DNA of 64,000 nt, taken from IMG/VR virus record IMGVR_UViG_3300044991_001301; one strand, 5' to 3'. Origin of the DNA: a virus. This document shows, one piece after another, positions 58,749 through 62,836 of this stretch (position 1 is the stretch's first letter; each line of letters opens with the position of its first letter). Under the pieces are notes generated by a model, which saw only the letters and a program-made list of their open reading frames with translations, was not told the DNA's origin and made no database searches. The position numbers were made by a program, and so were the translations under genes.

Positions 58749-58784
58749 CACATCTTGGAGCTCCTCATAATGAGGATCATAATA

Positions 58785-59924
58785 ATGGAACTTTTTAATC
58801 CCCTGTCAAGTGATTGGCTCTCATATAAATTTGAGATGTATAAAAAAATGCAGGTAATGGACACTGCATATTATTGTGAAAAATATAATGGATATGTATT
58901 TACCCGATACGATGACGTAAAATACGCATTAAAAAATCACGATATTTTTTCCTCCGGTCGCGGAAATCTTATTCAAGAATCCCCACATCGGTTCAATAGA
59001 ACACTTGGGGCGTCTGATGATCCAATGCATAGTATCCTCAAAAACATAGTTAAAGAAGCATATAGCAAAGAGAACATTCAACGAATAGTCAATTGTTTTG
59101 TAGAAAGGTCAACAGAGTTGTTGGCTGTTAATAATTCAGTTTTTAACTTGTCAAGTTTAGTAGAAGAGGCTAGTGCTTGGGTCAGTACAGAAATTCTGAA
59201 TTTACCGCATTGCAAAAAAGAAGTTCATAGATTAGTACTTGGCATATTACGGCATGCTAGCCAATCTGTGGCACACAATGTAGATCAGTCATACTATACT
59301 GAATTTACTAAGTTAATAGTTAGTTTGCTTAAAAATAAAGTACCGTCAGTTGGTCCTGGAATATACCATGAATTCATAACACATAGTAAAGACGACACAT
59401 TGATTTCATTATTTACCGGTCCAACTATTTCTGGAGTTGGATCATTGTCTGGCGCTCTGGGATTTTTAGCAGTAGACCTATATAGGGAGGATCTATTTGA
59501 GACATTAAATCAAGATAGATCATTGATTCCCGGGCTGATTAACGAATCATTGAGGTACAATTCTTCATCAGGTAGAAAAGTTAGAACGGTAACAAGAGAT
59601 ATTAGTATGCATAATGTATCCTTGAAATTGGGCGATAAGGTTATTTTGTCTCTAGAGGCAGCAAACAGAGATCCTAATATGTTTGCTGACCCAGATAAAT
59701 TCTTACCAGAACGCGAAAATGCAGGAAGCCTTGCGTTTGGATATGGAATGCACGCCTGTATTGCATCCGTTATTAGTAAGAAGGTACTTCAAGTATGGGT
59801 CGAGTTGTTACTAGGTACATTAGGTAAATATAAAATAACGCCAGACCCCTCAGGATTCGTCTTTCAGATTACCTCTTCCGGTAATCAAGACTCTGTAACT
59901 AATCTGATGGTGGAAACTATTTAG
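58785..59924 (+). CDS. Cytochrome P450
   Basis: TRYDDVK..L....FSS, D.P.H, ESLR (ExxR), AANRDP..F.DPD.F..ER and the heme motif FGYGMHACIA. Confidence 0.92.
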   Translation: MELFNPLSSDWLSYKFEMYKKMQVMDTAYYCEKYNGYVFTRYDDVKYALKNHDIFSSGRGNLIQESPHRFNRTLGASDDPMHSILKNIVKEAYSKENIQRIVNCFVERSTELLAVNNSVFNLSSLVEEASAWVSTEILNLPHCKKEVHRLVLGILRHASQSVAHNVDQSYYTEFTKLIVSLLKNKVPSVGPGIYHEFITHSKDDTLISLFTGPTISGVGSLSGALGFLAVDLYREDLFETLNQDRSLIPGLINESLRYNSSSGRKVRTVTRDISMHNVSLKLGDKVILSLEAANRDPNMFADPDKFLPERENAGSLAFGYGMHACIASVISKKVLQVWVELLLGTLGKYKITPDPSGFVFQITSSGNQDSVTNLMVETI

Positions 59925-59927
59925 GGG

Positions 59928-60593
59928 ATGAAAATATTAATATTTTATACTCCTAGGAGTAAAAGCACAATGATACACGATTTGTGCTGTAAAAAATTCA
60001 ATTTACGCCCGTTTGGTGACACCATAACAAAAAACAGAATCAAAAATAAGAATTTTAATGAATATCCGCCGTTGATAGCAGTCATCAATGAAAGCGATAG
60101 TATGTGCGTTAAGCTTAATGGTAATGATTTTTTTGACTCCAATAGTAATGCTATAACTGAGTTGTATAAAACAATAAACTATCAATCGTTTGACACCATA
60201 ATTTTCTTAACTAGAATCAATTATATAGATGCCATACTAAGTTATGCGTATATGGATCCCGACGACAGTACCACTTGGCATAGAAAAAAGAATCAGAAGG
60301 TTGTCGCTGAACCGTATACTATATCGCATAGTAAGATACATCATTTATTAAATGGATATCTATCGTATAACAAAATTAAACAGTATATACTTTCTGCTGT
60401 TACTACTTCTACCCAAGTATATGATTATGAGTACGACAATGTGGCTAATTTAATACTTAAATTAGAATTGGGAAGTGACATTGATCTAGTGCCAATGGAC
60501 ATTGATTATAAAAGTGTAGTAACAAATTATGATGAGGTTATTACCGTTGTTAGCGAATTTGTAGCCCATCATAACTTATTTGACATCAATTAA
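59928..60593 (+). CDS. Sulfotransferase-like P-loop protein
   Basis: TPRSKST resembles the PAPS 5'-PSB loop; IIFLTR...DAILS resembles the 3'-PB motif; YE near the C-terminus. Confidence 0.55.
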   Translation: MKILIFYTPRSKSTMIHDLCCKKFNLRPFGDTITKNRIKNKNFNEYPPLIAVINESDSMCVKLNGNDFFDSNSNAITELYKTINYQSFDTIIFLTRINYIDAILSYAYMDPDDSTTWHRKKNQKVVAEPYTISHSKIHHLLNGYLSYNKIKQYILSAVTTSTQVYDYEYDNVANLILKLELGSDIDLVPMDIDYKSVVTNYDEVITVVSEFVAHHNLFDIN

Positions 60594-60627
60594 TACATAT
60601 TTTTAAACTAGGACTAAATAACTTACT

Positions 60628-60762
60628 ATGATGAATATCAATCGTAACTTGCGGAAACATATGGAACTCTGGCAATCAATAGCCGGCAACTCCTTTGCGC
60701 CAGCATATCCAACAAGCATTCGCGGAATAAATGAGTTACAAACTAGCCCGGGGATTAGGTAA
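60628..60762 (+). CDS. 44-aa putative leader peptide MMNINRNLRKHMELWQSIAGNSFAPAYPTSIRGINELQTSPGIR
   Basis: Translated by hand. ATG is 7 nt after TAAATA (60615-60620); the 3' end is complementary to the 5' arm of the downstream terminator. Confidence 0.6.
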   Translation: MMNINRNLRKHMELWQSIAGNSFAPAYPTSIRGINELQTSPGIR

Positions 60763-60790
60763 CAAGTTAGTATCATAAAGAACTTTATCT

Positions 60791-60825
60791 AACCCCCGAG
60801 AAACTTAACAGTCTCGGGGTTTTTT
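60791..60825 (+). terminator. Rho-independent terminator (candidate attenuator)
   Basis: ccccgaga (60794-60801) / tctcgggg (60812-60819) followed by TTTTTT. Confidence 0.85.
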
Positions 60826-60846: not shown

Positions 60847-60875
60847 TTGACAAGATTTGAGAAAAAGAGTAGAAT
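60847..60875 (+). promoter_or_regulatory. Sigma70-type promoter upstream of the tRNA array
   Basis: TTGACA-17 nt-TAGAAT. Confidence 0.75.
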
Positions 60876-61144
60876 ACACTCTTGAAATATTGTGATACAG
60901 CAATGTACTGGGAACGTAGCCCAGATAGCGCACTTGAAACTTGCTATAAAAAGGCGGACAAGATACATAAAATCTGTGGCGATAACACAGAGAGTAAGAC
61001 TCTTGAATAGGGTATAACCCTATTATAACGTGAGCAATCACGTTATTCTAAAGCATATTGTAAAAGTGTGCTTTAGAATACACTCTAGGTCAGACATTTG
61101 GCTGACTGGAAATCACCGCCCTAGAGTGTGTTTAAATGTTAAAT

Positions 61145-61236
61145 GGAAGCGTGGCCGAGTGGTTTATGGCTTTAGTCTTGAAAACTAACGACCCCTTTAA
61201 AGGGGTCCGTGGGTTCGAATCCCACTGCTTCCTCCA
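61145..61236 (+). tRNA. tRNA-Ser (anticodon TGA)
   Basis: Cloverleaf with long variable arm; ttagt-CT TGA AA-actaa; GTTCGAATC; encoded CCA. Confidence 0.93.
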
Positions 61237-61519: not shown

Positions 61520-62029
61520 ATGCTTATGTTTCAAAAAATAAATATATCTTTTTTAGAATTAGATTTTGTTAAATTAAAAGGAGTAAATGCGTTTGATCTT
61601 CCGAGGTTCAAAGAATTTACTATTTTAGACACTGACTATTTGTTTGCCATATTAAATAAACAAATTCAGTTTGATGTAACACCTCGAGTAAACATAACAG
61701 AAATTACATACCCTGGTGCCGGCCCTCATACTGATACTTGGCAAACTGCTCTTAATTTTTATTTTGATGCCAATGAAGATGAAACATTTTTTTGGAAAGA
61801 ACTTAATGCAGCACCGGATTCAAAAAAAGGATTAGTATCCTACAATCAAAAAAATTTAGAAAAGACAGGTTCCTTTAAAGCAAATAAAGGAGATTGCTAT
61901 TTATTAGATGTTGGTAACTCAATTCATTCTGTAAAAATGTATACGCCAAACACAACTCGAAAAATATTAAGATTATTTTGGCATGAATTATCATTTGAAC
62001 AAGTATTACAAAGTTTGAAATTCGTGTAA
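61520..62029 (+). CDS. Putative 2OG-Fe(II)/cupin oxygenase inside the tRNA array (paralogue of 49612-50169)
   Basis: PHTD...ALNFY...TFFW...F.A..GDCYLLD...IHSV...RKILR. Start moved out of tRNA-Phe. Confidence 0.6.
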   Translation: MLMFQKINISFLELDFVKLKGVNAFDLPRFKEFTILDTDYLFAILNKQIQFDVTPRVNITEITYPGAGPHTDTWQTALNFYFDANEDETFFWKELNAAPDSKKGLVSYNQKNLEKTGSFKANKGDCYLLDVGNSIHSVKMYTPNTTRKILRLFWHELSFEQVLQSLKFV

Positions 62030-62275: not shown

Positions 62276-62836
62276 ATGGCTGTCCTAGCACTAGATATCT
62301 CAGGAACCCCCAGACAATGGATAACAAATGATACCGCAATTTCATACCACGCCACCAAATCAGTAGGTTGGAGTATGGGAGAGATTGTGGCTAGATATCG
62401 GGGTGGACTTCAAAATGATGGTACATCAAGTTACCTAGAAACTTCGTGTATCATTGCTATCAAGGGTCACGGGTTCAACCCCCATAAACACGCCCAAGTA
62501 GCATTAAGTAATAAAACATTGTTTGGTAGGGATAGAAATCTTTGTGCATATTGTGGCAAGTATTTTGCCAACTTCCATGCTTTAAGCAGAGACCATATTA
62601 TTCCTAAAAGTAAGGGTGGAGACAATACTTGGATGAATGTAGTTACCTCTTGCCGCGATTGTAACAGTGAAAAAGGACATAAAAGTTTGAAGGAAGCAAG
62701 AATGGAATTGCTTTACCTACCATATGTACCTTCACATTTTGAAAATATGATTTTACAAAATCGTAATATTCTAGCCGATCAAATGGAATATTTGATTGCC
62801 GGCGTACCAAAACACAGTAGAATTTTGCTTTCCTAG
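62276..62836 (+). CDS. HNH endonuclease (McrA/HNH_5-like) in the tRNA array
   Basis: LFGRDRNLCAYCG, DHIIPKSKGG.NTW.NVVTSC..CN..KG; SD aaggag. Confidence 0.9.
   Translation: MAVLALDISGTPRQWITNDTAISYHATKSVGWSMGEIVARYRGGLQNDGTSSYLETSCIIAIKGHGFNPHKHAQVALSNKTLFGRDRNLCAYCGKYFANFHALSRDHIIPKSKGGDNTWMNVVTSCRDCNSEKGHKSLKEARMELLYLPYVPSHFENMILQNRNILADQMEYLIAGVPKHSRILLS

Follow-up and report, generated by a model that had tools for sequence, protein, structure and literature searches.

We propose that a phage tRNA array is headed by a ribosome-mediated attenuator of transcription made up of a small open reading frame, ORF1, and the hairpins that follow it. This reading rests on computational analysis of sequence alone, without data on expression, ribosomes or termination, and we place its probability at about 0.6. 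To our knowledge, the control of phage tRNA genes and the signals to which these genes respond are largely unknown, and current debate about them concerns codon usage, the decay of host tRNAs and escape from anticodon nucleases. ORF1 was examined in the window, a 64,000-nucleotide stretch of viral DNA (IMG/VR record IMGVR_UViG_3300044991_001301), and in its relatives.

ORF1 and its position before tRNA arrays

All features of the window described here lie on the plus strand. A promoter, P1 (60580–60609; TTGACA, 18-nt spacer, TAAACT), overlaps the 3′ end of an upstream gene for a 221-amino-acid protein. P1 is close to ORF1, and there is no hairpin in the 5′ untranslated region; in relatives, the promoter lies 70–100 nt upstream and a hairpin is present. 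ORF1 itself (60628–60762) begins with an ATG at 60628, comprises 44 codons, ends with TAA and encodes a leader peptide of the subtype that we term type A. The motif ACTAAATA occupies 60613–60620, such that its TAAATA (60615–60620) is 7 nt 5′ of the ATG. The peptide contains 17 amino acids specified by 34 distinct codons, and it is devoid of Cys, Asp and Val.

The 5′ strand of a putative antiterminator (60749–60762) extends over the stop codon of ORF1 and the four sense codons before it, and it faces a 3′ strand at 60785–60798. Thirteen of the 14 positions are paired, with 12 Watson-Crick pairs, one G-U pair and one A/C mismatch. The last 5 nt of the 3′ strand are also the start of the 5′ arm of an intrinsic terminator (60794–60825) composed of an 8-bp stem (60794–60801/60812–60819), a 10-nt loop and six T residues (60820–60825), with a hairpin energy of -13.3 kcal/mol. 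Both helices are G+C-rich, and because they share 60794–60798 they are mutually exclusive. A sequence-only reading of this DNA had reported TAAATA, the 44-codon ORF, the pairing, the overlapping terminator and a promoter at 60847; all are present at those positions, and our recount of codons and amino acids agrees with its figures.

The terminator marks the end of a long run of same-strand genes (a 14-kb operon upstream), and a predicted sigma70 promoter, P2 (60847–60875; TTGACA-17-TAGAAT), is located 22 nt further on. A twelve-codon remnant of a second small gene, ORF2, is present at 60857–60895, the counterpart of a conserved small gene in most relatives. Between P2 and the first tRNA lies a conserved, structured, untranslated RNA (60882–61144) that belongs to no Rfam family. 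The array begins with the gene for tRNA-Ser(UGA) (61145–61236) and includes eight tRNAs up to the end of the window. Protein genes are interleaved in this array (61520–62029 and 62276–62836); one is an ORF of 169–185 amino acids without a Pfam match, and the other encodes an HNH endonuclease (PF14279, E = 1.5e-18) that is probably a homing endonuclease. A cytochrome P450 gene and the next gene, which encodes a 217–221-amino-acid protein of unknown family (window 58755–60593, L010:3661–5432), adjoin the head of the tRNA array in one type A and one type B phage.

Homologues of the upstream 221-amino-acid protein were found in metagenomes, and their contigs served as the first comparison. A relative whose neighbor protein is 61–63% identical carries a 44-codon ORF at the same place. 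Its stop codon falls in the same alignment column as that of window ORF1, and the end of the ORF is still complementary to the terminator arm despite different bases. A profile of leader peptides yielded 33 clusters, with 24 representatives at 50% identity, and DNA was examined for 13 + 59 + 53 loci plus others. The family comprises over 100 distinct small ORFs in two subtypes. Type A, which includes the window copy, has the core motif PAYPTSIRG, a usual ending of PGTR and a length of 43–48 amino acids. Type B, with a length of 46–53 amino acids, has the core motif MPSYWLAIN and usually ends in DRTP followed by a variable tail. The types share about 15–25% peptide identity and are bridged by intermediates. 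Members are related to one another, so that counts are not independent; clustering and column shuffles were used to address this kinship.

The ORF1 family was found only in uncultured large lake phages, and its sources are all uncultured, apparently freshwater, viral contigs of up to 524 kb. Neither DNA comparison nor tblastn queries with the upstream gene, either type of ORF1 or ORF2 revealed a close relative among cultured phages. Searches of IMG/VR with the 221-amino-acid neighbor and with the terminator sequence returned no match, and no ORF1 copy was detected in 185,579 species genomes. Ribonucleotide reductase places T4-like phages of Xanthomonas, Ralstonia and Stenotrophomonas closest among cultured phages; the nearest relative by this measure, Xanthomonas phage X1, carries three tRNAs and no such leader. 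Rfam searches with the window and five relatives at E values up to 1 retrieved tRNAs only, with no T-box match, and Pfam, PHROGs and the ESM Atlas gave no match for ORF1 or ORF2. Literature searches on phage tRNA attenuators, phage arrest peptides and all-amino-acid leaders found nothing relevant.

Downstream sequence of 1.2 kb or more is available for 59 loci, and each of them has a same-strand tRNA array after ORF1. The array begins 280–1540 nt after the ORF1 stop codon, with medians near 500 nt, and 8–11 tRNAs are present within 3 kb. Genes upstream of ORF1 vary by locus in family, size and strand (dTDP-sugar epimerase, Clp protease, unknowns), and the tRNA array is the sole neighbor that remains constant. 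The earlier suggestion that read-through is directed at the tRNA array is supported by the fixed position of the family (59/59).

Upstream of ORF1, a TTGACA/-10 promoter is found in 76 of 78 distinct loci, and tandem promoters are sometimes present. Almost all type A loci also carry GGACTAAATA 5–7 nt before the ATG, with GGATAAATA in one locus. In the window, 15 of 52 gene starts are preceded by TAAATA at a distance of 40 nt or less, and ACTAAATA is found 4–35 nt 5′ of several gene starts (60613–60620, 2628, 9053, 15798, 57469 and 62233). The motif is probably a T4-type late promoter, a function that we infer. At 5–7 nt from the ATG in type A, it would produce a late transcript that is nearly leaderless. 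Some type B loci have the late motif within the spacer of the sigma70 promoter, an arrangement of overlapping early and late promoters.

Of 38 type A loci, 35 retain P2, a promoter predicted from sequence, from which transcription of the structured leader RNA and the tRNAs would start beyond the terminator. Among 40 type B loci, 28 lack any sigma70-like promoter in the stretch from the terminator to the first tRNA. In most loci of both types, the terminator is followed by ORF2, which encodes 48–59 amino acids (for example L107:2730–2894, L022:2728–2901 and L044:659–808). ORF2 has its own Shine-Dalgarno sequence and a shared pattern of H-T-L-T, E-Q, K-L-I and E-R-A, and it may be the main target of regulation or may itself act on the switch. 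P2 overlaps the start of ORF2 in type A, and therefore transcripts from P2 lack the ORF2 ATG.

The hairpin-rich untranslated RNA before the first tRNA is also seen at L010:6415–6600 and L012:7000–7350, with shared blocks GGGAACG..CCC and GCACTTAAAACATG; a role as a leader for processing or as a stable small RNA is conceivable. Weak tRNA-Sec-like Rfam matches (25–27 bits, below threshold) are located directly before the first tRNA called by ARAGORN, at L010:6609–6694, L016:3113–3199 and L043:1743–1828. The L010 element, from the only one of these loci that was read, ends in CCA. These matches may be divergent long-arm tRNAs or tRNA-like elements.

Coding selection and covarying helices

The ORF1 peptide is under purifying selection in both subtypes, in which invariant residues are specified by several synonymous codons. 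Invariant Pro, Leu and Ser residues of type B use four, six and two codons, respectively. In type A, invariant Pro is encoded by CCA or CCT, Arg by CGC or CGT, and Gly by three codons. Third codon positions are the most variable in the family. On the strength of this coding selection we infer that ORF1 is translated.

In the C-terminal third of ORF1, it is the RNA rather than the peptide that is conserved. The reading frame of GGGTCC differs among type B members, yet this strand always faces GGACCC, which runs into the terminator arm. Comparison of L006:4187–4295 with L004:6841–6949 reveals a single C-to-T change in the antiterminator 5′ strand that converts Pro to Leu and keeps the pair as G-U. 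On alignment evidence of this kind, the change fits a constraint on the ORF tail that is stronger for the RNA than for the peptide.

Before the 3′ arm of the terminator exists, the minimum-energy fold of the window RNA is the antiterminator, at -17.2. The minimum-energy structure of the complete region is a three-way form, and the enforced states have energies of -20.0 for the antiterminator and -18.9 for the terminator. The nascent RNA is predicted to sequester the terminator 5′ arm, such that the antiterminator comes first, in every one of 86 distinct sequences. Across these sequences the terminator state is never the more stable of the two, and the mean energies of antiterminator versus terminator are -20.1 versus -19.4 for type A and -27.8 versus -25.7 for type B. 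Because the antiterminator forms first and is at least as stable, naked RNA is expected to read through. We infer that terminator formation requires the antiterminator 5′ strand to be covered.

This strand spans positions -14 to +3 relative to the stop codon in type A, and about -30 to -9 in type B. It thus sits where a ribosome that is finishing ORF1 would be, with occlusion inferred from the known size of the ribosome footprint. No trp-type strand-1 (anti-antiterminator) pairing is present in the window fold. For type B, RNAalifold predicts two hairpins inside the ORF that exhibit one-sided changes only and do not involve the antiterminator strand.

Alignments of the two subtypes reveal covariation in both helices. 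In the type A antiterminator, 89% of cells are paired, as compared with 60% or less when the strands are slid, and there are exchanges among G-U, A-U and G-C as well as one fully compensated pair. The core helix of type B carries compensatory changes at four of seven pairs among 27 distinct strand pairs (A-T/G-C, T-A/C-G and two C-G/T-A exchanges), and coordinated changes are also seen in a further sub-helix and in an inner hairpin containing the stop codon. The terminator is paired in 98% of cells across 45 type A sequences, with two compensated pairs, and a hairpin with an energy of -10 to -16 kcal/mol and a T-run after it occur at nearly all loci. In the type A loci L115, L117, L120, L146 and L148, the T-run is cut to three T residues followed by C or A, and the hairpin and antiterminator are kept; these loci may have weakened or lost terminators.

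Conservation and covariation in relatives indicate, at the level of sequence comparison, that the putative switch is more than a chance arrangement. The mutual exclusion of the two helices recognized in the sequence-only reading withstands folding of the window, whereas the fold by itself is not unusual (z = -1.4). Its larger claim, a translated leader whose 3′ end competes with the terminator, gains support from the purifying selection, the covarying helices and the antiterminator that is first to form in 86 of 86 sequences. The comparison with related phages that it suggested does uncover a conserved leader ORF and a covarying antiterminator before tRNA arrays.

Amino-acid content of the leaders

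Of 115 distinct leaders, 93 use the full set of 20 amino acids (51 of 61 type A and 42 of 54 type B sequences). Random windows of 45–48 residues from phage proteins of the same loci are complete in 2–3.5% of cases and contain a mean of about 17 amino acids. ORF2, with a mean length of 53 amino acids, serves as a further control: 0 of 66 sequences are complete, and the mean is 16.8 amino acids. Among representatives at 70% identity, 12 of 17 type A leaders and 6 of 9 type B leaders are complete. When residues are shuffled within alignment columns, the complete fraction drops to 0.31 and 0.24, and the observed value is not attained in any of 2000 shuffles.

Rare residues are kept at about one copy, and their position shifts. 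For example, type B leaders contain a mean of 1.02 His residues, which occur in 53 of 54 sequences and in seven alignment columns. His is absent from its main column in 33 sequences, and 32 of these carry it elsewhere. Type B Cys is spread over 12 columns. Compensation of this kind is almost always seen for Phe, Val and Lys in type B and for Glu and Gln in type A; for type A Asp the figure is 25 of 31 sequences. In two members the core Tyr is replaced by Cys and a Tyr is gained a few codons on. The core motifs remain fixed in position, though they are made of amino acids that are present in multiple copies, and this positional conservation is not explained by a leader that is purely a sampler of amino acids.

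Both codon boxes are represented for Ser in 86 of 86 leaders, for Arg in 84 and for Leu in 79, and ATA is present in 68. No run of one amino acid is found, unlike the enrichment for a single amino acid in classical attenuators. If a strict ribosome edge of +12 nt is applied, the stretch before the antiterminator strand contains on average 18.9 amino acids. The few codons beyond this edge are where Glu is mostly found, as is Gln in many type A leaders.

The sequence-only reading had held that the leader samples many codons. This proposal stands with respect to amino acids, given that most members contain all 20; the argument from codon counts is weak. The 34 distinct codons of the window yield P = 0.009 against genome codon usage and P = 0.001 against real 44-codon windows, but P = 0.07 given the peptide and unbiased synonymous choice, with a mean z of about +0.5 for the family. 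The caution in that reading that the figure depends on the null was therefore justified, and codon diversity beyond unbiased synonymous use was set aside as a weak effect. Also rejected was feedback on the phage's own tRNAs: array tRNAs read leader codons no more often than phage-gene codons, in a comparison for which arrays are partial.

The window copy is among the least complete in the family. Its leader has 17 amino acids, that of its 96% relative has 18 and that of the 61–63% relative has 20. Judged by this reduced set, by the ORF2 remnant and by the predicted bypass of the terminator by P2, the window copy is eroded. P2 feeds the array directly, and therefore the window switch can only add transcripts; such read-through would derive only from P1, the late promoter and the upstream operon. 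P2 would give the array a constitutive supply. The idea that a separate promoter at 60847 could provide expression is in keeping with our analysis, in which the window array has its own promoter.

A model for the switch, its alternatives and related systems

We suggest that transcripts start at P1 and probably also at the late promoter at TAAATA. In the emerging RNA, the G+C-rich end of ORF1 would pair with the terminator 5′ arm, thereby blocking the terminator and allowing RNA polymerase to read on. A ribosome at the last codons or the stop codon of ORF1 would cover the antiterminator 5′ strand, such that the terminator forms and transcription stops. Conversely, any delay of the ribosome further upstream would increase read-through. 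With every amino acid in the leader, and usually both boxes for Ser, Leu and Arg, a shortage of any charged tRNA would switch on the downstream genes, which are ORF2, the structured RNA and the tRNA array. The result would be a homeostatic loop on translation capacity. The direction of regulation, the physiological trigger and the response of read-through to the supply of charged tRNA are inferences.

The type B loci without a downstream sigma70-like promoter (28/40) count in favor of the attenuator, since their arrays would be dependent on read-through. Several observations count against it, including the bypass of the terminator by P2 in the window and at most type A loci (35/38), the fixed core motif, the 17 amino acids of the window leader and the 18.9 amino acids before the strict edge. 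The absence of own-tRNA codon enrichment and of strand-1 pairing must be added to these. A more specific version is that this lake-phage clade uses a “pangram” leader, with every amino acid and most of the split codon boxes, through which depletion of any charged tRNA raises transcription of phage tRNA genes, and we consider the odds of this to be even. Starvation, phage-induced decay of host tRNAs and host anticodon nucleases are conceivable sources of depletion under the pangram reading, but they are conjecture.

The main rival is a role for the peptide itself, either as an arrest-type leader or as a protein that acts in trans. An arrest-type core would stall the ribosome in the exit tunnel on a specific signal, such as a small molecule, a factor or a force, and so set the terminator choice, with the full amino-acid set being secondary. 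This could account for a positionally conserved core under purifying selection in both subtypes. It is also compatible with an R-x-Pro motif that follows the core Ile by 11 residues in typical members of both subtypes, located at the antiterminator 5′ strand or just before it, and with the lack of a confident AlphaFold fold for the core (pLDDT 65, pTM 0.24). However, arrest peptides usually need fixed spacing, and the distance from core to stop codon varies by several residues. Moreover, no known arrest motif is matched (Pfam and PHROGs are empty), and the retention of 20 amino acids with moving single-copy residues would remain unexplained. We judge arrest to be unlikely. A trans-acting small protein might instead serve tRNA processing, the structured RNA or a host factor, in which case the switch would do no more than couple downstream transcription to translation of ORF1. 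Purifying selection on the peptide would be expected, and the strong dedicated promoters before ORF1, sometimes in tandem, and the fixed linkage to ORF2, the structured RNA and tRNAs are consistent with such a gene. Here the missing AlphaFold fold and the missing family match are unfavorable, as is a C-terminal third that is conserved as RNA rather than peptide. Completeness with moving residues is not expected of a binding peptide and is absent from the adjacent real gene, ORF2. We judge a trans-acting role, like arrest, to be unlikely.

It could also be argued that nothing is regulated by the pairing, ORF1 being an unremarkable small gene or spacer and the terminator simply the one that closes the upstream 14-kb operon. 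The window terminator does end a long same-strand run with a restart at P2 22 nt later, and a single-sequence fold is unremarkable (z = -1.4). Nonetheless, compensatory changes keep the pairing across two subtypes that share about 15–25% peptide identity, the pairing outcompetes the terminator in every member, and upstream genes differ by locus whereas the linkage between ORF1 and tRNAs is constant. These points make an ordinary terminator very doubtful. Finally, the radical SAM/SPASM and P450 genes that adjoin ORF1 in the window and some relatives raise the idea of a RiPP precursor matured by radical SAM, P450 and related neighboring enzymes, and ORF1 has a precursor-like size, a strong promoter and its own terminator. 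Upstream neighbors vary widely, however, with the tRNA array as the sole constant one, and the variable part of the peptide tracks the RNA pairing. We rejected this hardly credible idea because there is no constant linkage to a maturase and members without such enzymes are equally conserved.

As an attenuator, the phage locus resembles the enterobacterial trp, his, phe, thr, leu and ilv systems in its short translated leader, intrinsic terminator and strand-sharing antiterminator. In both, the position of the ribosome would choose the helix, and a ribosome at the leader end would favor termination. The enterobacterial leaders repeat codons for one to three amino acids and precede biosynthetic genes, whereas the phage leader contains every amino acid and precedes a tRNA array. 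It is also three times longer, with a sequence-conserved peptide, no strand-1 pairing found and no sequence homology. TnaC, SecM and the erm and cat leaders likewise place a conserved short-ORF peptide before a regulated unit, with an aromatic-rich core 12–20 residues from the end. Those systems act through Rho access or unmasking of a ribosome-binding site in response to one ligand or force, in contrast to the intrinsic terminator and variable spacing of the phage leader, and they have no counterpart of the all-20-amino-acid constraint.

T-box riboswitches also tie a choice between terminator and antiterminator to tRNA charging before translation-related genes. However, a T-box directly binds one uncharged tRNA without translation, whereas the phage element has an ORF under coding selection and no T-box match. 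In ppGpp control of rRNA and tRNA promoters and in the GCN4 uORFs, any shortage of amino acids or tRNAs changes the expression of translation-related genes. The mechanisms are different, namely RelA/ppGpp acting on RNA polymerase and reinitiation after uORFs, and neither involves an all-amino-acid leader.

With a length of roughly 200 nt, this compact element might be used as a general translation-stress reporter. If the attenuator model is true, leader-peptide attenuation would extend from one amino acid to all, and this would be the first leader-peptide attenuator that is general rather than amino-acid-specific. It would also constitute the first known regulatory input to phage tRNA genes, with an intrinsic sensor of translation capacity in the form of the conserved attenuator that precedes the array.
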